Shown: positions 24,852 through 38,994 of the stretch, piece by piece | Numbering within the stretch: position 1 is the first letter of the stretch | How the letters are laid out: every line of letters starts with the position of its first letter | Source of the DNA: Lentisphaeria bacterium | Lineage (GTDB): Bacteria > Verrucomicrobiota > Lentisphaeria > JABSQK01 > JAWLHB01 | Direction of reading: 5' to 3' | Length of the DNA: 55,056 nucleotides | Assembly: GCA_041690595.1 (NCBI GenBank) | Contig: JAWLHB010000053.1 | Coordinates: forward strand, 1 to 55,056 | The notes under the pieces: generated by a model | What the model was told of the DNA's origin: nothing | Database searches by the model: none | Seen by the model: the letters and a program-made list of their open reading frames with translations, nothing else | Made by a program: the position numbers and the translations under genes

Positions 24852-24875
24852 CGACTGCCTGAGTTGGAAAAGGCC

Positions 24876-26570
24876 ATGCACCCACTGCTGATCCCCTTCA
24901 TCGAAGCGCGCCAATTGCCCGAACCCGACGCCGTCACCCTGACGGAGCGCCTGGAGGCCGATGCGACCCGCGTCCCGCCGGACGAGGTGGAGATTCTGCG
25001 CTGGTTGAGTGGGGAGTACGGGCTGGCCTTTTCCGACTTGGAAGACATCGTCCCCGATCCGCGCCTCATCGCCCTCTTTCCCGTGCGGCTCCTCCTCGCC
25101 CACGACCTGCTCCCTCTCCGCCGGGTCGATGACCAGGTCCATGTCGCCACCGCCCGCCTCGCCGATACTCGCGGACTCGACCTCCTCCGCTCCCAGACCG
25201 GCCTCCGCCTCGTCCCCGTCCTCGCCCCCCTCGAAGCCCTTCGCAAGCGCATCAAGGAGCACCTCGGCGTCGGCGCCGATACCCTCGACAGCATCGAGCG
25301 CGAATCCCAGTTACGCGTCGTCGATGACGATGCCCAGGAAGATGTCGACCTCGACAACATCGCCCAGGATGCCTCCATCGTCCGCTTCGTCAACCAGATC
25401 CTGGCCGATGCCATCGCCCAGCGCGCTACCGACGTGCACCTCGAGCCCTTTGAAGACGAACTCCAGGTGCGCTACCGCGTTGACGGCGTCCTGCTCGACG
25501 TGCCCGTCCCCGCCCAGATCAAGCGTTACCAGCCAGCCATCGTCTCCCGTGTCAAGATCCTCAGTAATCTGGATATCGCCGAGAAGCGCGTCCCCCAGGA
25601 CGGACGCATCAAGATCAAGCTGCAGCGCGAAGAGGTCGATGTCCGCGTCTCCATCATCCCGATGGTGCATGGCGAAGCCGTCGTCCTGCGCCTCCTTCAC
25701 CAGGCGACCGCCTTGGGTGGCCTCGAAGCGCTCTCCATGGATGAGCGCGAGAAGGCCATGATGCATCGCGTCCTGCGCCTGCCCCATGGCATCGTCCTCG
25801 TCACCGGCCCCACCGGCAGCGGCAAGACCACCACCCTCTACGCCGCCCTCCAGGAGATCAACGACATCGAACGCAAGATCATCACCATCGAGGATCCCGT
25901 CGAGTATCGGGTCAAGGGCATCAACCAGATTCAGATCGCCGAGAAGGCTGGCCTCACCTTCGCCCGCGGCCTGCGCGCTATTCTCCGCCATGACCCGGAC
26001 GTTGTCCTCGTCGGCGAAATCCGCGACAGCGAAACCGCCCGCATCGCCGTGCAGGCATCCCTGACCGGCCACCTCGTCTTCTCCACCCTCCATACCAACG
26101 ACGCCCCCGGCGCCCTGACCCGGCTGATGGACATGGGCGTCGAACCCTACCTCGTTGCCTCCTCGGTCGACACCGTCGTCGCCCAGCGCCTCGTGCGCGT
26201 CCTCTGCCGCACCTGCCGCCAGATCGACATCTCCGCCGAGGCCCAGCGCTTCCGCGCGGATCTGAAACTGGAGGAAAGCGTCGTTCTCTATCGCGCCGTC
26301 GGCTGTCCGCACTGCCGCGAAACCGGTTACCAGGGACGCCGCGCCATCTTCGAGATCTTTGCCGTGACCGAAGAGATGCGCCAACTGCTCCTTGCCAACC
26401 GCTCCACCGGAGAACTGCGCGTGGCTGCCCGCAAACACGGCATGCGCTCCCTGCGTGAGGATGGCCTGCGCCTGGTCCGCGAAGGCATCACCTCCGTCGA
26501 AGAAGTAGTCCGCGTCACCGCCGAAGGCGAAGAGCAGGCAGTGGCCCCTGTCGCCGGGGAAGGAGGCTGA
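24876..26570 (+). CDS. gspE: Type II secretion ATPase GspE/PulE
   Basis: Walker A GPTGSGKTTT, IAEKRVPQDGR, TIEDPVE, LRHDPD, GEIRD, TGHLVFSTLHTN, CxxC...CxxC. Confidence 0.93.
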   Translation: MHPLLIPFIEARQLPEPDAVTLTERLEADATRVPPDEVEILRWLSGEYGLAFSDLEDIVPDPRLIALFPVRLLLAHDLLPLRRVDDQVHVATARLADTRGLDLLRSQTGLRLVPVLAPLEALRKRIKEHLGVGADTLDSIERESQLRVVDDDAQEDVDLDNIAQDASIVRFVNQILADAIAQRATDVHLEPFEDELQVRYRVDGVLLDVPVPAQIKRYQPAIVSRVKILSNLDIAEKRVPQDGRIKIKLQREEVDVRVSIIPMVHGEAVVLRLLHQATALGGLEALSMDEREKAMMHRVLRLPHGIVLVTGPTGSGKTTTLYAALQEINDIERKIITIEDPVEYRVKGINQIQIAEKAGLTFARGLRAILRHDPDVVLVGEIRDSETARIAVQASLTGHLVFSTLHTNDAPGALTRLMDMGVEPYLVASSVDTVVAQRLVRVLCRTCRQIDISAEAQRFRADLKLEESVVLYRAVGCPHCRETGYQGRRAIFEIFAVTEEMRQLLLANRSTGELRVAARKHGMRSLREDGLRLVREGITSVEEVVRVTAEGEEQAVAPVAGEGG

Positions 26571-26574
26571 ATCC

Positions 26575-27789
26575 ATGGGAGCCTTTCATTACAAAGCCTT
26601 GCGTGACGACGGCACCATCACCACCGGCCAGCTCGACGTGGGCGGCCGCCAGGAAGCGTTGCGCCAGCTCTCCCGCCAGGGTCTCCAGTTGCTGGCACTG
26701 GAAGAGGGCGCCGTGGCGTCCCCCTCCACCGGCTTCTCCCTCGCCCGCAAGGGCGTCTCCAGCAAGGTGCTGGAAACCTTCACCCGCCAGCTTTCCAGCC
26801 TCCTCGCTGCCGGCGTCCCCCTCTCCCAGGCGCTCCACCTGCTGGCCCACGAAGACGAAGTCGGCCCCCAGCGCTCCCGCTGGCAGGCACTCCATGAGGA
26901 CGTCATCGATGGTTGCTCCCTTGCCCAGGCCATGAACAACCAGCCCACCGTCTTCCCCCATGTCTATTCCGCCATGGTCAAGGCTGGCGAGACGGGTGGA
27001 TTCCTCGACCTCGTTCTGCGCCAGATCGCCGGTTTCCAGAACCGCGACCGCGAACTGCGCTCGAAAGCCTACGGCGCCATGATCTATCCCGCCGTCCTCG
27101 CCACCCTCTCGTTGGCCGTCCTCATCTTCCTCATGGTCTTCTTCATTCCCCGCTTCCAGGGCATCTTCTCCGACTTCGGCGCCGCCCTCCCGCCGCTCAC
27201 CCGCCTCATCGTCAATGCCAGCCTGCTGCTCAAGAGCTACGGCATCTTCCTCCTCGCCGCCATTGTTGCGCTCATCGTGGGCAGCCGCCAATTCCTCGCC
27301 AGCCACCGCGGGCGTCTCTGGAAGGAGCGCCGCATCCTCCGACTGCCGGTTATCGGGCGCGTCGCCTCCCAGTTCGCCATGACCCGTTTCTGCCGCCTGC
27401 TCGGCACCCTCACTCAGGCCGGCGTCCCCCTCATCAGCGCCCTGCGCGTTGCCCGCGAAGCCATCGGCAACCAGATCCTCAGCGACGCCGTCGATGCCGC
27501 CGTCGACCGCGTCCAGCATGGCGACCGTCTGGGGGACAGCCTCGCCACCTGCCCCATGCTCTTCTCCCGCTCCACCGTCGCCATGATCAGCGTCGCCGAA
27601 CAATCCGGCCGTCTGGCCGAGGAGCTTCTCCGCATCGCCGACGACGCCGAGCAGGAACTCGACCGGCGCCTCCGCGTCGCCGTGGCCCTGGCCGAGCCCG
27701 CCCTCCTATTCGTCATGGCTGCCTTTGTCGGACTCATCGTGATCGGCATGGTGCTGCCCATTTTCGCCATCCAGGACTACATCCAATAA
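26575..27789 (+). CDS. gspF: Type II secretion inner-membrane platform protein GspF
   Basis: Motifs FTRQLSSLLAAGVPL, AGETGG, AMIYP, AEQSG, AEP and transmembrane segments. Confidence 0.93.
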   Translation: MGAFHYKALRDDGTITTGQLDVGGRQEALRQLSRQGLQLLALEEGAVASPSTGFSLARKGVSSKVLETFTRQLSSLLAAGVPLSQALHLLAHEDEVGPQRSRWQALHEDVIDGCSLAQAMNNQPTVFPHVYSAMVKAGETGGFLDLVLRQIAGFQNRDRELRSKAYGAMIYPAVLATLSLAVLIFLMVFFIPRFQGIFSDFGAALPPLTRLIVNASLLLKSYGIFLLAAIVALIVGSRQFLASHRGRLWKERRILRLPVIGRVASQFAMTRFCRLLGTLTQAGVPLISALRVAREAIGNQILSDAVDAAVDRVQHGDRLGDSLATCPMLFSRSTVAMISVAEQSGRLAEELLRIADDAEQELDRRLRVAVALAEPALLFVMAAFVGLIVIGMVLPIFAIQDYIQ

Positions 27790-27804: not shown

Positions 27805-28245
27805 ATGAAGAATACCCACCGCTCCCACCGCCTGACTCGCTCTGGCTTCACCATGGTCGAGCTGCTGCTTGTCCTGGTCATCCTGGCTACCCTGGCCGCC
27901 ATCGTCGTCCCCAAGTTCACCGGGCGTTCCAAGCAGGCCAGGATCACCGCCGCCCAGACCGAGATCAGCTCGGTCGAGGTGGCCCTCGACGCATTCGAGG
28001 TCGACAACGGCTATTACCCCCAAGGTAGCGACGCCCTCCTGCAACTGGTCGAACGCCCCGCCGACAACCCCAACTGGCGCGGACCGTACCTGAAGAAGGC
28101 CGTCACCAACGATCCCTGGGGCAACCCCTACATCTTCGAGAGCCCCGGCCGCTACAATGTCGACGGCTACGACCTCTATTCCATGGGCCCCGACGGCAAG
28201 GTCGGCGGCGATGACGACATCACCAACTGGAATCAGGAACCCTGA
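27805..28245 (+). CDS. gspG: Major pseudopilin GspG
   Basis: Motifs GFTMVELLLV, WRGPYL, DPWGNPY, SMGPDG, DDITNW. Confidence 0.95.
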   Translation: MKNTHRSHRLTRSGFTMVELLLVLVILATLAAIVVPKFTGRSKQARITAAQTEISSVEVALDAFEVDNGYYPQGSDALLQLVERPADNPNWRGPYLKKAVTNDPWGNPYIFESPGRYNVDGYDLYSMGPDGKVGGDDDITNWNQEP

Positions 28246-28742: not shown

Positions 28743-29113
28743 CCCGAAGGAGATTCACTCTGGCTGAGGTCCTGGTCGCCGTCATGGTCATCGGGCTCCT
28801 CGTGCCCATTGCCCTGCGCGCCCTCATGATCGACTCCCGGCTGGATCAGCAGGCTGCCCAGCGACAGGAAGCCGCCGGACTGGCCGACTTCAAGCTGCGC
28901 GCCCTCCTCGTGACCGGCGACTGGCGCGATGCCGAATCCAGCGGCGATTTCGGCGACGACTATCCCGGCTACACATGGGAACTCCAGACCGATGACTGGA
29001 CCGAGGGCGACATCACCCTCCGCCTCCTCCAACTAACCGTCCGCGGCCCTGGCGGCGCGGACCGCACGGCCGTCACCCTGACCACCCTGGCGCCTGAATC
29101 GGAGGAGCTCTGA
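28739..29113 (+). CDS. gspI: Minor pseudopilin GspI-like
   Basis: MTRRRFTLAEVLVA start; ATGA overlap with gspH; short. Confidence 0.75.
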   Translation: MTRRRFTLAEVLVAVMVIGLLVPIALRALMIDSRLDQQAAQRQEAAGLADFKLRALLVTGDWRDAESSGDFGDDYPGYTWELQTDDWTEGDITLRLLQLTVRGPGGADRTAVTLTTLAPESEEL

Positions 29114-29769
29114 TGCGTCGCTCCCGCTTCACACTGCTGGAACTGTTGACCGCGGCAATGGCCTCCGCCGTCCTGATGGCGGCGTTGCTCACCGTGGTCG
29201 CGGTTGCCTGGAAGCTCCAGGAGCGAGCCGTGGATCGCCAGGCGGTCGCCGTGCCGCGCGACGCCGTCTCCCGCCTGATGCGTGGCGATCTGCTGGCTGC
29301 CGTGCCCCCCAATGGCATCCTCGCCGGCCCGTTGCTGGCCGAGGCTGTCGAGGTCGGCGATCAGCGCACCGATACCCTCGAATTCGTGGCGGCCATCGGT
29401 GGTGCCGCTTGGGAGCAGGTCGGTCCTGAGCTGGCAAAGATCAACTACTACCTGCTGGAGAGAGATACGCCCGGAGAATATGACCTGATCAGAACCGAAG
29501 AGTCGAACCTCCTGGCGGTCGAGATCGAAGAGCCGGAAGAGATCGTCCTCCTCCGCGGCGTGGTGGGCTTCGAGCTGAATTTCCATGATGGGACTGACTG
29601 GGTGACCGGATGGGATTCCACCGTGCAGGAGAACCAGTTGCCCGTCGCCGTGCAGGTGCGGATTCTCTTTGCCGAGCGTGATGGCCGCATCCCGTTGCCA
29701 CTGGCGCTGGTGCTTCCTTTCGAGGCGCGGAGCCTGCTGGCCGCCGTCGCGGGAGGGCAGACGCCATGA
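29113..29769 (+). CDS. gspJ: Minor pseudopilin GspJ-like
   Basis: RFTLLELL start, WVTGWDS...LPVAVQV C-terminal motif, TGATG overlap. Confidence 0.8.
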   Translation: MRRSRFTLLELLTAAMASAVLMAALLTVVAVAWKLQERAVDRQAVAVPRDAVSRLMRGDLLAAVPPNGILAGPLLAEAVEVGDQRTDTLEFVAAIGGAAWEQVGPELAKINYYLLERDTPGEYDLIRTEESNLLAVEIEEPEEIVLLRGVVGFELNFHDGTDWVTGWDSTVQENQLPVAVQVRILFAERDGRIPLPLALVLPFEARSLLAAVAGGQTP

Positions 29770-31082
29770 AGCGCGATAGTGGCAGCATCTTGATCTTCAC
29801 CCTCTGGCTGGTCGCCGGCCTCGCCTCCGCCGCGCTCCTCTTCGGCCACAGCGCCATGCTCAACTATCGTCGCGAGGCCAACCGCGTCGCCGCTCTCCAG
29901 GCCGAATACGCCGTCGAAGGTGCCCTCCGCTACCTGCTTCAGGTCATCGCCACCGCGACACCCGGCGACATGCCCGATCCCACCAGCTTCACCGCCGAAG
30001 ACCTGCGCCTCGGCGACTGCCGGATCTGGTTCATCTCCCGTCCCGCCAACACCGACGCGTCGGAGCCGACTTTCGGCCTGATGGACGAGGCCGGCAGGCT
30101 CAATCTCAATACAGCCGAGCCCGAGATGCTCCAAGCCCTTTCCGGCATGAGCGAGGCCCTCGCCGGCGCCATCGTCGACTGGCGCGATGTCGACAGCGAC
30201 ATCTCCGAGAACGGCGCGGAGTCCGAGACCTATCTTGGCTTCGATCCGCCTTACCTCGCCAAGGATGCGCCATTCGAGACTGTCGGCGAGCTTGGCCTCC
30301 TCAATGGCGCCGAGCCGGACCTCCTGCGTGGGCGGGACCTCAATCGCAATGGCTTTCTCGAAGACTGGGAGAGGGATCTGGCCCAGGAAACCGGCGAGCG
30401 CTTTGCCGAGCTGCCCGACCTCGGCTTTCTTGACCTCTTCACGGTGGCCAGCCAGGAACCCAATACCTCCGCCGATGGCGAGCAGCGCCTGAACCTGAAT
30501 GCCACGGGAAGCGGCACCGCCACCGCCTTGGCCGAAATCGTCGGCGCGTCGCGCGCTGAAGGCATCGTGCAGAGCACCAGCCTGGGCACCCGCCAATTCC
30601 GTAGCGTGCTAGAGTTCTGCCTCGCCGCGGGGCTGTCGCAGAGTGAATCGGAGCAGGTGCTGGCGCGTTTCAGCACGACCGATGCCGCGATGGTGCAGGG
30701 GCTGGTCAATGTCAACACCGCCCCTGGCGCGGTCCTCGCCTCCCTGCCGGGTATCGGCGACGATCTGGCGGAACAGCTTGTTGCCTTCCGCGAAGCCAAT
30801 CCCGACAACCTCACCTCGCTCCTCTGGTTGACCGGCGCCATCGGCGAGGAAGCCGCCCTGGCCGCGGCCCCCTACGTCACCACGCGCAGCTGGCAGATCG
30901 TCGCCGATATCGTGGCGGTGGCGCCGCGCGGCAGAGCATTCTGCCGGGTGCGCTACACGATCGACACCACCTCGGGTGAGCCAGTCATCGTGGCGCGCCG
31001 GAATTTGACCCATCTCGGCTGGCCTCTTGGGGCCGCCTGGCGAGAGGAACTGGTGAACCAGCCTTGGGAGCAAGCGTTATGA
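29766..31082 (+). CDS. gspK: Minor pseudopilin GspK
   Basis: GSILIFTLW start, DEAGRLNLNTA, AIVDWRD, VNVNTAP, HhH-like LPGIG. Confidence 0.88.
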   Translation: MKRDSGSILIFTLWLVAGLASAALLFGHSAMLNYRREANRVAALQAEYAVEGALRYLLQVIATATPGDMPDPTSFTAEDLRLGDCRIWFISRPANTDASEPTFGLMDEAGRLNLNTAEPEMLQALSGMSEALAGAIVDWRDVDSDISENGAESETYLGFDPPYLAKDAPFETVGELGLLNGAEPDLLRGRDLNRNGFLEDWERDLAQETGERFAELPDLGFLDLFTVASQEPNTSADGEQRLNLNATGSGTATALAEIVGASRAEGIVQSTSLGTRQFRSVLEFCLAAGLSQSESEQVLARFSTTDAAMVQGLVNVNTAPGAVLASLPGIGDDLAEQLVAFREANPDNLTSLLWLTGAIGEEAALAAAPYVTTRSWQIVADIVAVAPRGRAFCRVRYTIDTTSGEPVIVARRNLTHLGWPLGAAWREELVNQPWEQAL

Positions 31083-32464
31083 GCATGAGCAAGAGCACCG
31101 CCATCGTCGCCATCTGCCTGGACGAAGGGCAGTTTGGCGCCGTGCTGCTGAATGGCGGTTCACCACGGCAGGTGCAGGGACCGCTGTCGATGGATCCCCT
31201 CGCCGATGAACCTGCCCTTGTCGCCCAGGAATTGCGCGAGCAGTTGGCACCCCTGGGAAGGCTGCCGCGCCAGGTCGTCGTCGCTCTGCCCCTCAACCGC
31301 ATCATGACCACCTCCATCGACATCCCGGCGATTGCCGATGAACTGGTCAGCGACTTCCTCCACCTGCAGGCCGAGCAGGCATTCATGCTGGCGCCCGCTG
31401 ACATGGCCTTTGGCGCCAGCCGCGCCCGCGGCAGCGACCGCGCCCTGCTGATGGCCCTGCCCATGGCGCACTACCTCAACCTCTGCCGCGCCCTGCGCCT
31501 GATGGGCTGGAAACGGCCTATCGTGACCGCGCTTCCCGTCACTCTTGCCGGCGGCGGCGAGGTGGGCAAGCTTCACGCCAGCCTCCTGATCGGCGCCCGC
31601 TGGATCGACTGGCTGGTTTGCCGTGAAGAGGCGATCATCCAGTTGCGGCGGGTCGCCGGCGCGATGCCGGATGCGACGCGACCCCAACCCGAAGTCGCGG
31701 CGGTGCCCGGCGAGCTTCGCCTCTCCCTTGGCCAATTGCCGGCTGCCGTGCGGAGGCAGCTCGATCAGATCGTCATTGTGGGCGCCAGAGACGCAGCCGC
31801 CAGGTTGCGCGATGACCTGCGCGGCGTCGGGCCCGCCGGCATCGAGTTCACGATCGAGGAGGCAGGCAGGGACGGCTCCCTGCTGACGCACGCCGCCGAG
31901 CATGCTGGGCGGCTGGCGCGCATGGGAGCCCTTGCCCTTACCCTCGCGCCCATACCTTCGGCCATCAAGCCGCGTGCATGGGGCCACTGGAACCGGCGCC
32001 AGTTGAGCTGGACCGCGGCCATTCTGCTGCTGCTGGCGGTCGGCGTTGCGGCACAACTCCTCTATCAGCGTCGGCAACTGAACGCACTCGAACGCTCCTG
32101 GCGCTCCATGGCGCCGCGGACGCAGGTCGTGCGCGATATCCTCGACGAAGCGCGAGCGCGCGAAGCCTGGTTGAGCGACGATCCACTCACCCTGGATATT
32201 CTGCGCACCGTGACCATGGCCTTCCCCGAGCAAGGCTCCGTCTGGACGACGCGTGTCGAGATGCGGGGCCGGCGCCAGGTCAGCATCTCCGGCAAAGCGC
32301 TCAACCGCGAGCCCTGGCTGAAGATGCTCGAAGATCTCCGCCGGAGTCCCGGGGTCACCGAGCTGCGTGTCTCCCAGGCCCGCGACGGCGGAGACAGCCG
32401 GACGCCCATGACCTTCGCCCTCAGCTTCATCTGGCAAAGGCCCGCCGCGGAGGTGACACGATGA
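31079..32464 (+). CDS. GspL-like (PilM/PilN-like) assembly platform protein
   Basis: Cytoplasmic domain, single TM and periplasmic ferredoxin-like part (VSISGKA). ATGA overlaps on both sides. Confidence 0.65.
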   Translation: MSMSKSTAIVAICLDEGQFGAVLLNGGSPRQVQGPLSMDPLADEPALVAQELREQLAPLGRLPRQVVVALPLNRIMTTSIDIPAIADELVSDFLHLQAEQAFMLAPADMAFGASRARGSDRALLMALPMAHYLNLCRALRLMGWKRPIVTALPVTLAGGGEVGKLHASLLIGARWIDWLVCREEAIIQLRRVAGAMPDATRPQPEVAAVPGELRLSLGQLPAAVRRQLDQIVIVGARDAAARLRDDLRGVGPAGIEFTIEEAGRDGSLLTHAAEHAGRLARMGALALTLAPIPSAIKPRAWGHWNRRQLSWTAAILLLLAVGVAAQLLYQRRQLNALERSWRSMAPRTQVVRDILDEARAREAWLSDDPLTLDILRTVTMAFPEQGSVWTTRVEMRGRRQVSISGKALNREPWLKMLEDLRRSPGVTELRVSQARDGGDSRTPMTFALSFIWQRPAAEVTR

Positions 32465-33015
32465 CCTTCAAGGGCATGGAAACCCGAAAGCTTCTGTTGA
32501 TCGCCTCCCTGGCCCTGCTGGCCCTACTGGTGCTCGATCGCCTCGTGGTCTCGCCCCTTCTGGCCGGCTGGCGGGAGCGGCAGGAGCGCATCGCGGAGCT
32601 GCGTATCCAACTGGCCCAGGCGGACAATCTCCTCGGCCAGGAGAGCCGCTGGCTGCGCTGGCGCGAAGAAGCCGCCGAACGTCTCCTGCCCGTCAATCAG
32701 GCCGACGCCGAGAATCAACTTCTGGGTCTGGTCGATGGATGGGCGCGCGAGGCCGGGCTCAAGGTCACCTCCCTGCGCCCCCTCTGGAAGGAAACGCCCG
32801 CGAAGCGTCTCCTGCTTGAATTGCAGATCAGCGGAAGCGGCAACATGGCCTCCCTTACCCGATTCCTCCATGCCATCGAGACCGGCCACACCGCCATTGC
32901 CGTTGAGCAGCTCGACCTTTCCGCCCAGGATCAGGATGGCCGCGAACTCGGCCTGAACATGAGGGTGAGTGGCCTGTGCCGTGACTCAGCCGTCAGAACG
33001 GGAGCAGGACGATGA
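32461..33015 (+). CDS. GspM/PilO-like protein
   Basis: MTFKGM start, N-terminal TM, coiled coil, G..ASLTRFLHAIE motif. ATGA overlaps. Confidence 0.7.
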   Translation: MTFKGMETRKLLLIASLALLALLVLDRLVVSPLLAGWRERQERIAELRIQLAQADNLLGQESRWLRWREEAAERLLPVNQADAENQLLGLVDGWAREAGLKVTSLRPLWKETPAKRLLLELQISGSGNMASLTRFLHAIETGHTAIAVEQLDLSAQDQDGRELGLNMRVSGLCRDSAVRTGAGR

Positions 33016-33569
33016 AGCAGTCCATGATACTTCTCTGGTTGATCGCCGCCGTCGTGGCTCCCGCTGCCGAGGACGGCTTCAGCGCCTACAAGGTGCTGAG
33101 CGAACGCAACATCTTCAGCCCGACTCGTGGTACGCCTGTGGAAGAGCGCGAGGAACAGACCCCAGAGGCGCCCGTCGTTCTCCTTGACGCCATCAAGCTC
33201 CTCGGCGTGGTGGTGGTCGATGGGCTCCCGACCGCCTTTTTCGCCGGCAACGTGGAAGGAGTTTCCGGCATGCGCCAGCTGGGAGATCGCCTCGCGGGGC
33301 TGGAGGTGAAGACCATCGCCACCACCGGAGTCCTCCTGGCGGGCGAGCAGGGCGAGCTGAAGCTCGCGGTGGGAAGCGCCATGACGCGCCGGGGCGACGA
33401 AGAGTGGCAGATCGCCGCCGAAGCGCCCCCCATCCCGGGATACAACCCTTCATCCTCACCAGTATCCACATCCTCTTCATCACCGCCGGAGGCCTCCTCA
33501 TCGGGTGGGAGTGCCAGCGATATACTCAAACGTCTGAGAGAACGTCGTCAACAGGAGTTGAAACAATGA
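33012..33569 (+). CDS. Exported protein, GspC/PilP HR-domain-like
   Basis: Signal peptide, RNIFSP, IKLLGVVV..., Ser-rich tail and C-terminal ILKRLRERRQQE. Lies immediately upstream of the secretin genes. Confidence 0.55.
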   Translation: MKQSMILLWLIAAVVAPAAEDGFSAYKVLSERNIFSPTRGTPVEEREEQTPEAPVVLLDAIKLLGVVVVDGLPTAFFAGNVEGVSGMRQLGDRLAGLEVKTIATTGVLLAGEQGELKLAVGSAMTRRGDEEWQIAAEAPPIPGYNPSSSPVSTSSSSPPEASSSGGSASDILKRLRERRQQELKQ

Positions 33570-35023
33570 GCTTACCAATGATAGCATGGCGCCGGAAGGT
33601 GGCCCTGATTGCCGGCCTCCTGGCGACCCCGATGATCGTGTGGGCGCAAGAGGCCGATTCACCTCCCCCCGATCCCAGTCGACAGGAGGTGCAACTGCAA
33701 CTCAACTTCCGCGGCGTTTCCCTCGATACCGTCCTCGACTATCTGAGCCAGGCCGCCGGCTTCGTCATCACGCGAGACGAACCTGTCGAGGGCACCGTCG
33801 ACATTATCAGTCATCATCCCCTCAACCGCGACGAGGCCGTCGAACTGCTCCACACCGTTCTCAACGACAAAGGCTACGCCCTGCTGCGGACGGGCCGTTT
33901 CCTGCGCATCGTCAAGCGGGAAGATGCCCGGACCCGCGACCTTCCCGTCATCTCCGGCAGCGACCCAGCGGCGGTGCCCAGGAGTGGCGAGATGGTGACC
34001 CAGATCGTCCCCGTACGTCATACCAACGCCGCCAAACTGATTGACACCCTCAAGCCATTGATGCCCACCGGCACCGTGATCACTGCCAACGAAGACAGCA
34101 ACTCACTCGTCATTACCGACACCCAGACCAGCATCAACCGGATCATGCAGATTATTCAGGCCCTCGACACCGCCGTTTCGAGCATTCTGGATATTGCCGT
34201 CATTCCCCTACGGTACGCGGATGCGCAGGAGACGGCGGATGTCATCAACAAGGTCTATGAGACCCCGACTCAGAGAAATGCCGCCGCGCAGAGCGCCAAC
34301 AACCGGCGCGCCAGCATGATAGCACGTTTTCGCGGTGGCGATATGCCGGAGGCCGATGCTAACACCAACGAGGTGAAACAGACCTCCAGCTACATTCGCG
34401 CCGTGGCGGATCAGCGGGGCAATGCGGTGGTGGTCACCGCCCCCGCCGAGTCGATCCCCCAGATCCGCCAACTGGTCCTGCAACTCGATACCGCCAGTGA
34501 AGCCTTCAGCACCCTGCAGGTCTTCCAGCTGCAATTTGCCGATGCCGTGGAGATCGCCAATGTCCTCGCCGGTCTCTATCCTGACCCGACCACAAGCCGC
34601 AATCAGACTGCCTCGTCCCGCTTTGGCCGCCGCGGTTTCCCCCAGCCACAACCGCAGACCGAGAGTGCCGGAGAGAGCCGGCGCCAACTGGCGGAGGCCA
34701 AGGTCATGGCCGTCGCCGATACCCGCACCAACTCCGTCATCGTCAGCGCCTCTCCCTCCACCATGGTCGAGATCGAAACGATGATTGTGGCCCTCGACGC
34801 CACACCGCAAAACCTCCCCACCGTCTTCATCTACCAACTGGAAAACGCCGATCTGCAGACGACCAAGAGCATTCTGGACAGCATGTTCTCCGACCTGGAC
34901 GGCAGCAACTCGACCAACCGTTCGACCACGACCCGCGCCACGGGCGCCACCACCACCACGGGTGGACGGACAACTCAATCCGGTGCCGGCACCGGTAACA
35001 CAAGTGGCGCCACCCGGCGCTGA
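33566..35023 (+). CDS. Secretin N-terminal half (N0 + three KH-like N domains + first half of a fourth), no beta-barrel domain
   Basis: Signal peptide (VWA|Q); N0 LNFRGVSLDTVLDYLS; repeats of [V.pL.yAdA...aD.rtNsviv...LD]. Ends after VFIYQLENADLQTTKSILDSMFS and a Thr/Gly tail. Confidence 0.85.
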   Translation: MSLPMIAWRRKVALIAGLLATPMIVWAQEADSPPPDPSRQEVQLQLNFRGVSLDTVLDYLSQAAGFVITRDEPVEGTVDIISHHPLNRDEAVELLHTVLNDKGYALLRTGRFLRIVKREDARTRDLPVISGSDPAAVPRSGEMVTQIVPVRHTNAAKLIDTLKPLMPTGTVITANEDSNSLVITDTQTSINRIMQIIQALDTAVSSILDIAVIPLRYADAQETADVINKVYETPTQRNAAAQSANNRRASMIARFRGGDMPEADANTNEVKQTSSYIRAVADQRGNAVVVTAPAESIPQIRQLVLQLDTASEAFSTLQVFQLQFADAVEIANVLAGLYPDPTTSRNQTASSRFGRRGFPQPQPQTESAGESRRQLAEAKVMAVADTRTNSVIVSASPSTMVEIETMIVALDATPQNLPTVFIYQLENADLQTTKSILDSMFSDLDGSNSTNRSTTTRATGATTTTGGRTTQSGAGTGNTSGATRR

Positions 35024-35036
35024 AAGGGGGATCCGC

Positions 35037-36149
35037 ATGAAAATCTGGTTGTCTGTCATCTGTCTATTCCTGATCTTTGGTCTCGTTACGAGCGGCCAGG
35101 ATGACATGGACGCCGTGCCCGGTGATGAGCCTGGCCGCTTCGTCACCGGCCGTGCCGACGCCGCGGGAATCGCCGAGCCTGTCGCCGACGAACGCCTCAC
35201 CAGCCGCAGCAAGCGGCAGCTTCATGTCGAGGTCGATGAGGGGACCCGCACCATGATCATCACGACGGATCCCACCACCAACCTGCAGGTGCGAGACATC
35301 ATCCGGGCGCTCGACAAGCCCGTCCCGCAGGCGCTCATCAAGGTGCTCTTTCTGGAAGTAACGCACAACGACGATATGGACATTGGTGTCGATGCCAGGT
35401 ATACCGGCAACCGCTCCATCATCTCCTCCATCTTCGGCGTCGGCGCCGAGACTCAGGGCGGCATCGTCAGTATCCTCCAGACCGATCTCGAAGTGACCAT
35501 GAGGGCGCTCGCGGAGGTGGGCAGGCTCAATGTCCTCTCCCGTCCCTCCATCCTGACGCGAAACAACCAGGAGGCCACGATCACCATCGGGCAGGAGGTC
35601 CCCTTCATCCGCAACAGCCGCATCACTCAGGACGGCCAGATCATCAACACGGTCGAGTACGAGGATATCGGTATCATCCTTACCGTCACCCCCAGAATCG
35701 GCGTCGATGGTTTGATCGAACTCGATGTCGCGCCGGAGATCTCCACCCTGACCGGGCAGACCGTCCCCATCTCCGGCACCGTCAACGCCCCCGTCTTTGC
35801 CAAACGTTCCGCGCAGACCCATGTCATTGTCCCCAGCGGTAAGACCGTTGTCATCGGCGGCTTGATGGAAGACCAGGAGACGGTTAATGTCCGCAAGGTA
35901 CCCATACTTGGCGACATACCGGGTCTTGGCGTTCTCTTTCGACGAAAAATCACCACCAAGCAGAAGACCGAGTTGCTGATCTTTCTTACCCCCACTATCG
36001 TGACCGATGGCGCACACCTCGTACGGATGAGTGATGACGAAAGCAGTCGCGCCACCCTTATGCGTCAGCAGGATGAGAAGAGATTGGACTTCTACATGGA
36101 CAGAGAACCCTCAGCGGCGGCGGATCTCGCGCCTTCAGGCACTCCATGA
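35037..36149 (+). CDS. gspD: Secretin C-terminal half (second half of last N domain + secretin barrel), GspD-like
   Basis: Own RBS (AAGGGGG) and signal peptide MKIWLSVICLFLIFGLVTSG. Motifs VDEGTRTMIITT...LDKPVPQALIKV, SRPSILTRNNQEATITIGQEVPF, GKTVVIGGL, VPILGDIPGLGVLFR, ELLIFLTP. Confidence 0.88.
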   Translation: MKIWLSVICLFLIFGLVTSGQDDMDAVPGDEPGRFVTGRADAAGIAEPVADERLTSRSKRQLHVEVDEGTRTMIITTDPTTNLQVRDIIRALDKPVPQALIKVLFLEVTHNDDMDIGVDARYTGNRSIISSIFGVGAETQGGIVSILQTDLEVTMRALAEVGRLNVLSRPSILTRNNQEATITIGQEVPFIRNSRITQDGQIINTVEYEDIGIILTVTPRIGVDGLIELDVAPEISTLTGQTVPISGTVNAPVFAKRSAQTHVIVPSGKTVVIGGLMEDQETVNVRKVPILGDIPGLGVLFRRKITTKQKTELLIFLTPTIVTDGAHLVRMSDDESSRATLMRQQDEKRLDFYMDREPSAAADLAPSGTP

Positions 36150-37648
36150 GGCTCAACCCCAGGCTGCTCTACCTGATCCTCGCGATTGTCTGGATCGCGA
36201 TTGTTGCCTGGCAGATTGTCGAGCACCGTCGCATGGATCGGGCGGTGCATGAGGCCCAGTTGAACCGCGCTCATGACATCGCGACCTCGTTGGCGGTCGT
36301 CATCCGGTCGCAGCGTCGCTTCGGGACGGTGCCGCGCAGTCGCCTGGTTTCGGCGCTGGAGGATCTGGCCAACTCCAGTGAGCTGCTTGGAATCGCCATG
36401 CTCAATCCCGCCGGCGAAGTCATTGCCTCCGGCGGACAGGGCATCGATGGTCCACTTGCCGATCTGGCCCCCGGCGACGTCAAGCGGGCCGACGGCCGCC
36501 TGATGGTGGCTTCCCTCGTCGAGCTTGGCGAGGAACGGATGCCCCGCGTCGGCCCCGGTGGTGACAGCGATGGCGAGAGAGTCGCCGAGGATGGCCGTCC
36601 CGCCACTGCCATCATCTGGTCGACCGAAGAACCCCCGCCGCGAGAACGGCCTGCCGGCGAAGACGCGGCGGAGTCAACCCTCTCGCCGGAAGAAGAACGG
36701 GCGCTGCGGCGTGCCCGTTGGGAACGAATGCGGCAGATGCACCCGCACTTCCAGTCCCCCGAACGCTACCAGGAGATGTACGAGCGCCAGGGGCTCCACA
36801 TGATGGTGCTGCTGATGGACATTCAACAGAACGAGAAGGTGCTGGCGCGCGACGGCTGGTTTCGCGCCATGTTGGCCGGCGTGGCGCTGCTGGCGGCCGG
36901 TGGTCTCGGTCTTGCCTGGAGCGGCGTCGCCCGTTCCTCCCAGTTGCAGATTCGCCTGGCACGGGCGCGCGCCCAGAACGCTTACCTTCGCGAGCTGAAC
37001 CTCGCCGCGGCAGGCCTGGCACACGAAACGCGAAATCCACTCAACATCGTGCGCAGCATCACCCAGATGACCGCCAGCGACGAGCAGGTCCCCCCGCGAG
37101 CCCGGGCTCAACTGGGCAGGACCCTCGAAGAGGTCGACCGCATCACCGCCCGGCTCAATGAGTTCATCGACTATTCGCGCCCTCGTGAGCCACACCTGTC
37201 CCCGGTGAAGGTTACCGATCTGGCACGCGATGTCGCCCGCACCCTCGAGACCGACTTCGAGGACAAACGCATCACCTTCACCTGCGACGACAGCGCCGTC
37301 GAGGTGCTCGCCGACCCTGAAATGCTGCGCCAGGTGGTCTTCAACCTCCTGCTCAACAGTTCACAGGCTGTCGGTGAGGGCGGGCACATTGGCGTCGCCA
37401 TAAGCCAGGCCGGCTCCACCGTCGAGTTGGAGGTCGTCGATGATGGCCCCGGCGTTCCACCTGCCGCCCGCGAGGATATCTTCCGCCCGTACTTCACCCT
37501 CAGCGATCACGGCTCCGGCCTCGGCCTGGCCGTTGTCCGGCAGATTGTCCTGGCGCATGGATGGGAGATTTCCTGCGACGCCAATGGCGATGTCGGCAGC
37601 CGATTCCGTATCCGCGGTATCGAGTTGCCCGGGAGGGAACGCTCATGA
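36146..37648 (+). CDS. Membrane sensor histidine kinase (ZraS/PilS-like)
   Basis: Two TMs flanking a periplasmic region, H-box LAHETRNPL, N-box NLLLNS, DDGPG, GSGLGL. ATGA overlap with the secretin gene. Confidence 0.92.
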   Translation: MRLNPRLLYLILAIVWIAIVAWQIVEHRRMDRAVHEAQLNRAHDIATSLAVVIRSQRRFGTVPRSRLVSALEDLANSSELLGIAMLNPAGEVIASGGQGIDGPLADLAPGDVKRADGRLMVASLVELGEERMPRVGPGGDSDGERVAEDGRPATAIIWSTEEPPPRERPAGEDAAESTLSPEEERALRRARWERMRQMHPHFQSPERYQEMYERQGLHMMVLLMDIQQNEKVLARDGWFRAMLAGVALLAAGGLGLAWSGVARSSQLQIRLARARAQNAYLRELNLAAAGLAHETRNPLNIVRSITQMTASDEQVPPRARAQLGRTLEEVDRITARLNEFIDYSRPREPHLSPVKVTDLARDVARTLETDFEDKRITFTCDDSAVEVLADPEMLRQVVFNLLLNSSQAVGEGGHIGVAISQAGSTVELEVVDDGPGVPPAAREDIFRPYFTLSDHGSGLGLAVVRQIVLAHGWEISCDANGDVGSRFRIRGIELPGRERS

Positions 37649-38994
37649 GTGATGATGGCCGATGGGTGCTGATCGTGGATGACGATGCCAGCCAGCGGGA
37701 ACTCCTGGCCGGATTTCTGGAACGGCGTGGTTTGCGGACCGTGACCGCCGGCTCCGGCGCCGATGCCCTGGCTCTCCTCGATTCCAAGGAGGTGGAGCTC
37801 CTCATCTCCGATGTGAGGATGCCCGGCATGAGCGGTATGGAACTGATGCGTCGCGTCCGCGATCGTCATGCCACGCTGCCCGTGCTGATGGTGACCGGCT
37901 ATGCCGATATCCGCGATGCGGTGACCGCCATGCGCGACGGCGCCCTCAACTACCTCGAGAAGCCGATCGACCTGGAGGAACTCGGTGCCGTGGTGGCCGG
38001 CGCTCTGGGGGAGCGGAGCCTCGACAAGCCCACTGAACCACCTGATATCGACCTGCCACCCGACGTGATTGCGGTAAGCCCCGCCATGCGCGATGCGCTG
38101 CGCGAGGCCGCCCTGGTTGCCCCCTACGATTCGCGCGTCTTGATCACCGGCGAAAGCGGCACCGGCAAGGAGGTCATCGCCAACCTCATCCACCGCTGGA
38201 GTCCCCGTCGCGACCGTCCGATGGTCTGCGTCAATTGCGCGGCCATTCCCGACCAGCTGCTGGAGAGTGAGCTGTTCGGTCATGAACGCGGAGCTTTCAC
38301 CGGCGCGGTCGAAGCAAGGGTGGGGCGCTTCGAGGAAGCGGATGGCGGCACCATTTTCCTTGACGAAATCGCCGAGATGCCCGCCGCCCTGCAGGCCAAA
38401 CTGCTGCGCGTCACCCACGATGGTACCTTTCAGCGGCTCGGCTCCAATCGTCAGCACAAGGTCGACATGCGCCTGCTGGCTGCCACCAATCGCGATCTCG
38501 AGCAGGAAGTCGCCAGTGGCCGCTTCCGCGAGGACCTCTTCTACCGGCTGAACGTCATCGAGATTCATCTGCCGCCATTGCGCGATCGAACGGCCGACAT
38601 TCTTCCGCTCGCCAACTACTTTGCCGCCAGGCACTCCGGCGGCCGCCATCGCCTTTCCCCCGGCGTGGCGACAAATCTGGCACTCCACGACTGGCCCGGC
38701 AACGTGCGGGAACTGCAGAACGCCATGGAGCGTGCGGTGCTCATGGCCCGCGGCGGCGTCATTCTTCCCGAACACCTGCCGCGTCGCATCGTTGAAGCCT
38801 TGGCCGGCCCGGACCAACCGGGCGCCGAATCCACGGGCAAGCTGCAGGAGGTGGAAGACATGGTCATCCTGCAGACGCTTCGCGCCAACCAGTACAATCG
38901 CACCGAGACCGCCAAGGCTCTCGGCATCAGCCGCCGTGCTCTCATCTACAAGCTGCGCCGCCTCGAAGAGGACGGTCATCCCATCAATCCCTGA
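37645..38994 (+). CDS. Sigma54-dependent response regulator (NtrC/ZraR/PilR family)
   Basis: Receiver LIVDDD...SDVRMP...KP; AAA+ GESGTGKE, ESELFGHERGAFTGA, WPGNVREL; Fis-type HTH. ATGA overlap with the kinase. Confidence 0.95.
   Translation: MSDDGRWVLIVDDDASQRELLAGFLERRGLRTVTAGSGADALALLDSKEVELLISDVRMPGMSGMELMRRVRDRHATLPVLMVTGYADIRDAVTAMRDGALNYLEKPIDLEELGAVVAGALGERSLDKPTEPPDIDLPPDVIAVSPAMRDALREAALVAPYDSRVLITGESGTGKEVIANLIHRWSPRRDRPMVCVNCAAIPDQLLESELFGHERGAFTGAVEARVGRFEEADGGTIFLDEIAEMPAALQAKLLRVTHDGTFQRLGSNRQHKVDMRLLAATNRDLEQEVASGRFREDLFYRLNVIEIHLPPLRDRTADILPLANYFAARHSGGRHRLSPGVATNLALHDWPGNVRELQNAMERAVLMARGGVILPEHLPRRIVEALAGPDQPGAESTGKLQEVEDMVILQTLRANQYNRTETAKALGISRRALIYKLRRLEEDGHPINP

Follow-up and report, generated by a model that had tools for sequence, protein, structure and literature searches.

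The 55,056-nucleotide stretch of Lentisphaeria bacterium DNA that is the subject of this analysis (GenBank assembly GCA_041690595.1, contig JAWLHB010000053.1; the window, for short) ends a type II secretion operon with a secretin that is encoded in two adjacent genes. The cut lies inside a domain: the N domain next to the barrel begins in the first gene and ends in the second, and each gene opens with its own predicted signal peptide. Type II and type III secretion, type IV pili and filamentous phage export all use secretins as their gates in the outer membrane, and such a gate is treated as a homo-multimer of single chains. The following are matters of observation: how the genes are built, that the arrangement is conserved and has one origin in the sampled tree, where the breakpoint lies, and that both half-domains are under constraint. 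What is described here is a real, ancient and conserved two-gene secretin of a type II secretion system (T2SS), cut inside its barrel-proximal N domain; the structural consequence that follows from the cut is plausible. We consider it likely that this is a GspD whose protomer consists of two polypeptides, the product of an ancient gene fission, with the barrel-proximal N domain rebuilt in trans. The original prediction, made from the letters of the window, had proposed a two-subunit secretin with this domain rebuilt in trans, and had added that the periplasmic vestibule of such a secretin would be detachable and possibly exchangeable.

The two genes and the spacer between them are made up as follows (aa, amino acids; E, expectation value).
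33566-35023, + strand: gene 1, the N-terminal half of the secretin (N-half), 485 aa, with its TGA stop at 35021-35023
33566-33646, + strand: predicted signal peptide of gene 1, residues 1-27, ending VWA, then QEA
33701-33910, + strand: N0 domain, residues 46-115 (Pfam PF21305, E 1.3e-10)
33998-34798, + strand: three complete Secretin_N domains (N1-N3-like), residues ~145-411 (PF03958, 3 stretches, E 1.6e-40)
34814-34894, + strand: orphan beta1-alpha1 half of the barrel-proximal N domain, residues 417-443, sequence TVFIYQLENADLQTTKSILDSMFS
34895-35023, + strand: poorly conserved Thr/Ser/Gly/Asn-rich tail, residues 444-485, and the TGA stop
35024-35036, + strand: 13-bp spacer with the Shine-Dalgarno-like AAGGGGGA at 35024-35031
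35037-36149, + strand: gene 2, the C-terminal half of the secretin (C-half), 370 aa: leader, linker, half N domain, barrel and C-terminal tail
35037-35096, + strand: predicted signal peptide of gene 2, residues 1-20, MKIWLSVICLFLIFGLVTSG, then QDD
35097-35210, + strand: variable linker of gene 2, residues 21-58 (conservation 0.26)
35211-35318, + strand: orphan beta2-beta3-alpha2, residues 59-94, the second half of the barrel-proximal N domain
35319-36011, + strand: secretin barrel region, residues 95-325 (Pfam Secretin PF00263 at 157-322, E 6.9e-49)

Layout, coordinates, domains, the spacer with its ribosome-binding site and the second signal peptide all agree with the original prediction. The ATG of gene 1 overlaps the stop codon of the gene upstream (ATGA), and the start of its product, MSLPMIAWRRKVALIAGLLATPMIVWA followed by QEA, reads as a signal peptide, judged by its charge, its hydrophobic run and an AxA-like site. 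Low-complexity loops occupy the common alpha1-beta2 position in the second and third Secretin_N domains of gene 1. At the junction, AAGGGGGA ends 5 nt upstream of the gene 2 ATG at 35037. The incomplete domain is visible in Pfam terms also: residues 57-98 of gene 2 match positions 28-69 only of the 69-position Secretin_N model (E 8.7e-4). Against the GspD family model TIGR02517, gene 1 covers positions 1-336 of 600 (210.8 bits), and gene 2, at 229 bits, has its best stretch at model positions 411-596; neither half reaches the curated GspD equivalog cut-off of 351.35 bits, and the family is matched only by the pair.

Homologues of each half stand as genes of their own in public data. The best 120 homologues listed for gene 1 are 423-812 aa long and carry N0 and Secretin_N; PF00263 is listed for none of these 120. 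Gene 2 has more than 120 homologous cluster representatives of 306-481 aa, at 51-69% identity and on contigs of up to 507 kb. Alignment of 33 of the C-half homologues displays mostly a Met, then Lys, Arg or Asn, then a hydrophobic run; the linker that follows is variable, and the strand-strand-helix and the barrel are conserved. A Gln directly after the predicted leader cleavage site recurs across many of these proteins.

Upstream of its ATG, gene 2 has a frame that runs on without a stop for 252 nt (34785-35036, + strand) and there overlaps the 3' end of gene 1. That the frame is open from 34785 had been noted in the original prediction and is confirmed. Comparable overlaps occur in only some related loci (L029, L034, L037 and L041, for example), and the open stretch is therefore read as a chance feature of GC-rich DNA and not as a coding extension.

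The distribution of the split was followed by scanning contigs, one genome per species, which yielded 587 related stretches; the best 80 of these were classified by script. An adjacent pair of N-gene and C-gene is found in 40 of the 80 and one continuous open reading frame (ORF) of 631-1334 aa in 36; three of the remaining loci are cut at a contig start and one is too short to classify. The homologues, for which a search had been proposed in the original prediction, are thus not uniformly single-chain. By their record titles the 40 split loci come from Lentisphaerota, Sumerlaeota, Omnitrophota and Verrucomicrobiota, and they share one breakpoint, tail, second signal peptide and linker, a recurrence that puts the layout well outside chance: in every one of them the N gene ends with the conserved strand-helix (KVFVYxLENADV..IL..F) and a low-complexity tail, and the C gene runs from a basic and hydrophobic leader (often ..AQ) through a linker to GEAxIExDxETxSLIVITD. 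All 40 split loci have a strongly hydrophobic 10-mer no more than 25 residues from a start codon of the C gene. The gap between N stop and C start is 8-189 nt in 39/40 loci, L040 being the exception. The relation of the two reading frames varies from locus to locus, with TAA, TAG and TGA all in use, and in 16/40 pairs the two genes share a frame with a single stop between them, near the one-third expected by chance. No conserved frame relation or stop context was found at the junction in the 40 loci (slippery sequences were not searched for). The variety of frames and stop codons argues against read-through or frameshifting.

Positions 34785-35040 had been singled out earlier as the place where an indel might fuse the two frames. 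Parts of the stretch occur in only three DNA runs, all from one sediment-metagenome study (shares 0.11-0.20), and related-strain contigs from these runs span 34792-35132 with substitutions only and no indels. One of these contigs bridges the gene 1 stop and the gene 2 start (34946-35132) without a gap.

A maximum-likelihood tree was built for the C-part. Of 23 candidate outgroup loci, 12 had enough coverage for the filter, and L103 was excluded for its shortness; the tree has 92 rows. All 41 split rows, the window included, fall together with 2 contig-cut rows in one clade (ultrafast bootstrap/Shimodaira-Hasegawa-like approximate likelihood-ratio support 100/97). The fused sister clade holds 36 fused rows and 1 contig-cut row (95/80) and is mostly Planctomycetota; the single-chain outgroup (12 rows) is supported at 100/100. 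The window's nearest neighbours in the tree are Lentisphaerota, with 81% identity to L027 over the tree region. Of 401 genomes sampled from the phylum of G418, where L061 is found (a phylum taken as Planctomycetota), 48 have a match, and 46 of the 49 matches lie in frames of at least 632 aa; the three shorter ones run into contig ends. One split clade, taken with the phylum samples, points to one old fission. By all of these comparisons, the split is an old, conserved arrangement in several phyla and not an error; the simple frameshift error that the second signal peptide had seemed to argue against is hard to reconcile with 40 split loci in one clade and four phyla, each C gene having a leader of its own.

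Where the cut falls is established by two comparisons. The last N domain of 12 single-chain sisters is intact and reads strand-helix, loop, strand-strand-helix; the orphan beta1-alpha1 of gene 1 aligns to its beta1-alpha1. The loop at the break site consists in these sisters of 30-50 polar residues without a hydrophobic run, and in the split forms its position is occupied by tail, stop, new start, leader and linker. The intact last domain of the sisters shows that the two halves belong to one domain. When profiles of both halves are compared with solved structures, the break falls within a Gly-rich loop of N3 in XcpQ from P. aeruginosa (5wln) and in GspD from E. coli (5wq7), and the orphan beta2-beta3-alpha2 aligns to the second half of N3 in both. 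The original prediction, that the break lies within a loop of the barrel-proximal N domain, is borne out by both.

Conservation of the parts, calculated as the mean majority fraction per column in 34 N-halves and 33 C-halves, is as follows.
Orphan strand-helix (N-half): 0.58, with 4 columns at 90% or more
Strand-helix of the intact N2: 0.62, with 4 columns at 90% or more
Strand-helix of the intact N3: 0.61, with 6 columns at 90% or more
Tail of the N-half: 0.31, with 0 columns at 90% or more
Orphan strand-strand-helix (C-half): 0.58, with 6 columns at 90% or more
Linker of the C-half: 0.26, with 0 columns at 90% or more

Judged by these alignments, both orphan half-domains are about as conserved as complete N domains. 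An N domain is built as beta-alpha-beta-beta-alpha, and a lone beta-alpha or beta-beta-alpha makes no stable fold. A half-domain that cannot fold alone and is nevertheless constrained implies a partner, for which the other half, always adjacent, is the obvious candidate.

A structural model is consistent with this pairing. It was made with AlphaFold2 for L027, the closest pair with both genes in the same frame, read through with X at the stop and aligned with 12 more pairs treated likewise and with 33 natural single-chain sisters. Both halves were modeled with a block-mean predicted local distance difference test score of 87-96, the tail and linker with a score below 50 and the leader helix with about 57-60. 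The halves jointly superpose on N3 of 9k8v_A with Z 10.6 and a root-mean-square deviation (rmsd) of 1.0 Å over 58 residues (model range 112-277), and on N3 of 5w68_A with Z 10.8 and an rmsd of 1.7 Å over 65 residues; together with the preceding domain they superpose on N2-N3 of 5zdh_A (Z 11.4, 128 residues). The model is driven by fused homologues: it says that the sequences fit one fold, and nothing about two free chains binding. In a two-chain co-fold, run on residues 314-450 of gene 1 and residues 56-112 of gene 2, each with its alignment, the scores were 0.25 and 0.24 against the tool's mark of 0.32, which speaks neither for binding nor against it. That the split N domain would be rebuilt in trans is a strong inference.

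The following course of events is proposed. The fission would have cut the gene in the flexible alpha1-beta2 loop of the N3-equivalent domain directly under the barrel. Each half would then be translated from its own start and exported by the Sec pathway by means of its own cleavable signal peptide. The N-half would be a periplasmic protein of N0, three N domains, beta1-alpha1 and a disordered tail; the C-half would consist of a disordered linker, beta2-beta3-alpha2 and the barrel that forms the outer-membrane pore. Once both chains had reached the periplasm, the beta-alpha left over in the N-half and the beta-beta-alpha left over in the C-half would come together as one ring-building N domain, and the vestibule made by the N-half would hang under the outer-membrane pore by way of that N3-type domain. 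At its far end N0 would meet the inner-membrane platform, as in other type II systems. For GspD and GspC such a contact is established.

Several points weigh against this account. Binding of the two chains to each other, cleavage of the leaders, stoichiometry and secretion are things that we infer. The structural model is of a single read-through chain guided by fused homologues. All three criteria of a crude signal-peptide rule are met in only 35/40 loci, the other five being start-codon choices of the script. In L040 the N gene matches in two frames and may be broken. The split form is also sparse: of 401 genomes sampled from the phylum to which the window belongs, seven have a close match (all in open frames of 395-503 aa), and the 40 nearest genomes contain no match above about 34% identity. 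No RNA run is among those listed as holding the stretch.

As regards L040 itself, a Sumerlaeota metagenome-assembled genome contig (about 1459-3574), what is seen may be either a broken N gene or an assembly error; its sister L051 has a normal adjacent pair.

The two genes might instead encode proteins that share no domain, the C-half being a minimal secretin and the N-half an independent periplasmic adaptor that meets the pore through different contacts, if it does so at all. Short secretins with few N domains do exist and are among the structure matches (pIV, 7ofh, and RcpA, 8odn; compare phage pIV and the MshL type), and the adaptor proposal profits from the indirect nature of the argument for chain binding. 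It leaves the conservation of the orphan half-domains, which are as constrained as intact domains while the tails that flank them are not, without a reason; it requires half-domains that have no stable fold by themselves to persist side by side in every locus where both genes are seen; and those halves model as one N3-like domain. We regard it as unlikely. The detachable and exchangeable vestibule of the original prediction, in which different N-halves or regulated docking would change the states of the pore or its partners, is a sub-case of the two-chain secretin and not an alternative to a real split. A non-covalent junction physically permits dissociation, the split clade is associated with a histidine kinase and a sigma-54 regulator (see below), and the length of the vestibule is very plastic in the fused sister clade (689 to about 4,500 aa). 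The window's genome, however, which is 97% complete, has a single N-half, so that an exchangeable vestibule is unsupported; the N and C genes, moreover, are always adjacent and look translationally linked. The real split and the two predicted exported chains thus survive from the original interpretation, whereas its exchangeable vestibule, given one N-half and strict adjacency, is very unlikely.

The remaining explanations deny that there are two mature chains at all. Programmed recoding, by frameshift or stop read-through, could make one fused protein, and it might appeal to the frame of gene 2, open upstream to 34785 across the 3' end of gene 1, and to the 16/40 related loci in which both genes lie in one frame with a single stop between. 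But frames differ among the loci, all three stops occur and 16/40 is near the chance one-third; no C gene is without a start and a hydrophobic leader of its own, and a fused product would hold that hydrophobic segment inside a periplasmic loop, where the single-chain sisters have none. Recoding is accordingly rated as highly improbable. A frameshift of sequencing or assembly, or a recent pseudogene, is suggested only by the origin of the window in a draft assembly of 99 contigs, and is scarcely credible for a split that recurs in 40 independent loci in four phyla and one old clade, is represented by more than 120 short C-half clusters and at least 120 N-half clusters in public data, and has both of its halves under constraint. 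A pseudogene or assembly artefact is contradicted by the common breakpoint in 40/40 split loci, by their union in one clade at 100/97 and by the lack of any indel across the junction in related-strain contigs. The type II secretin with a two-polypeptide protomer and a trans-built N domain is the reading retained in what follows.

The split secretin genes close a type II secretion operon on the + strand and are followed by two regulatory genes.
24864-26570, + strand: GspE (Pfam T2SSE)
26575-27789, + strand: GspF (Pfam T2SSF)
27805-28245, + strand: GspG (Pfam T2SSG)
Listed between GspG and GspJ, + strand: minor pseudopilin-like ORFs
29113-29769, + strand: GspJ (Pfam T2SSJ)
29766-31082, + strand: GspK (Pfam T2SSK)
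31064-32464, + strand: L-like gene (Pfam), upstream in related loci too
Within 31978-33015, + strand: M-like gene (Pfam), upstream in related loci too
33012-33569, + strand: 185-aa protein without a known family, its start leader-like and its C-terminal part rich in Ser and Pro
36146-37648, + strand: histidine kinase (Pfam), its start overlapping the gene 2 stop
37561-38994, + strand: ORF of a sigma-54-type response regulator (Pfam)

T2SSM_b is also among the Pfam families found on the same strand upstream of the split secretin. The 185-aa protein has no Pfam match even at E 5. It lies directly upstream of the N-half in 35/40 split loci and 10/36 fused loci, and is, by its position, a candidate for a GspC/PilP-like partner of N0. 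Directly downstream, the kinase is present in 28/40 split loci and the regulator in 26/40, each being found in 1/36 fused loci; the counts are lower bounds, with flanks of 4 kb or flanks ended by contig ends. Kinase and regulator appear to form a dedicated two-component system that accompanies the split clade. Elsewhere in the genome the only other match to the N-half is weak and lies inside a single-chain secretin. Five further loci with a secretin domain are found, on contigs C37, C3, C7, C2 and C67: four have open frames of 645-1513 aa (the 1513-aa frame is on C3), and in the fifth a 365-aa frame gives a weak match. This organism thus has several outer-membrane channels, of which the split secretin is one.

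In its order of domains, N0, Secretin_N and barrel, the pair resembles canonical single-chain GspD (PulD, XcpQ, EpsD; 5wln, 5wq7, 5zdh, 6hcg, 5wq8), with which it also shares the operon partners GspE, F, G, J and K. Compared with GspD chains, the C-half profile scores E 6e-60 to 2e-50 and the N-half profile about 1e-36. Unlike GspD, the window's secretin comes as two polypeptides, cut in an alpha1-beta2 loop and with a second signal peptide on the C-half; it also has one N domain more than the classical N0-N3 layout. The single-chain sisters (for example L048, L057, L061 and L066) are 49-62% identical to the C-half over about 280 residues and have in common with the split loci the array of N domains and the L-like and M-like genes upstream. 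They differ in having one ORF, a polar and leaderless loop at the break site and the kinase/regulator pair in 1/36 loci.

The statement in the original prediction that secretins are normally single chains holds for GspD and for the sister forms, with the qualification that a split secretin gene has been described in the Rhc type of type III secretion. The relevant passages of PMC3574062 and PMC3973906 speak of a secretin split into separate, non-adjacent N- and C-terminal genes, rhcC1/nolW and rhcC2, the meaning of which they call unknown. The possession of separate N and C genes is what the two cases have in common; the Rhc split belongs to a type III cluster, whereas the window's neighbours are T2SS genes, adjacent genes and a cut inside one domain being peculiar to the latter. 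One gene in the rhcC2 position was examined (L107:3221-4675, 484 aa, on the Bradyrhizobium barranii plasmid NZ_CP088102.1); it came from a plasmid tblastn search and is identified as rhcC2 by synteny only. It is flanked by a response regulator and a CpaD-like lipoprotein and lies next to rhcU-Q. Its product is CpaC/RcpA-like, with T2SS-T3SS_pil_N and BON complete before Secretin. A protein with complete N-terminal domains of its own represents a different kind of split, in which no single domain is cut through; this one synteny-identified example suggests that the rhizobial type III "split secretin" is not a simple cut of an SctC gene.

Another likeness is the fission that gave rise to TadB and TadC in the inner-membrane platform of the Tad pilus, as described by Denise et al. 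2019 (PMC6668835): there too a core component of a machine of the type IV filament family has undergone an ancient, fixed fission. It differs in affecting another protein, in a cut between two repeated domains and in needing no new signal peptide. A split T2SS secretin is not described in the sections of the full-text literature covered by the search, PMC6668835 and PMC4960237 included; subscription journals lie outside that coverage.

The single-chain sister group also includes giants, in some genomes of the phylum taken as Planctomycetota. A secretin at L123:2697-16280 (+ strand; the same as G770:C1, about 2233696-2247279) is one ORF of 4527 aa with 36 Secretin_N stretches (1172 bits), followed by one secretin domain at residues 4278-4443. 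Three more giant matches, in genomes G536, G591 and G688, have open frames of 3942-4490 aa. A periplasmic conduit built by a secretin with about 36 ring-building domains would be extremely long.

The requirement that a new signal peptide arise on the C-half when the gene was cut makes this an unusual kind of gene fission. It also has a practical side. N-halves go in public data by the names "hypothetical protein", "secretin N-terminal domain-containing protein" and "general secretion pathway protein D", while a large number of C-halves are left unnamed; with such naming, and with each half below the GspD cut-off, automated surveys may count these systems as being without a complete secretin. 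A fixed cut through an N3-type domain is, furthermore, a ready-made split-protein experiment that asks whether such a domain can form from two chains, and the split secretin could show whether the barrel assembles without its vestibule and in what way pore and vestibule are coupled. It is tempting, if speculative and on balance improbable, to go further and imagine a modular machine of two rings, in which the C-half barrel inserts alone and the N-half docks reversibly through the split N domain. Their association would control assembly across the cell wall, or the opening and closing of the conduit, possibly under the direction of the kinase and the sigma-54 regulator. If that were true, these secretins and their Planctomycetota relatives with ~36 N domains would form a subfamily in which both the length of the vestibule and its attachment evolve, fitted to the unusual envelopes of the Planctomycetota-Verrucomicrobiota-Chlamydiota (PVC) type.

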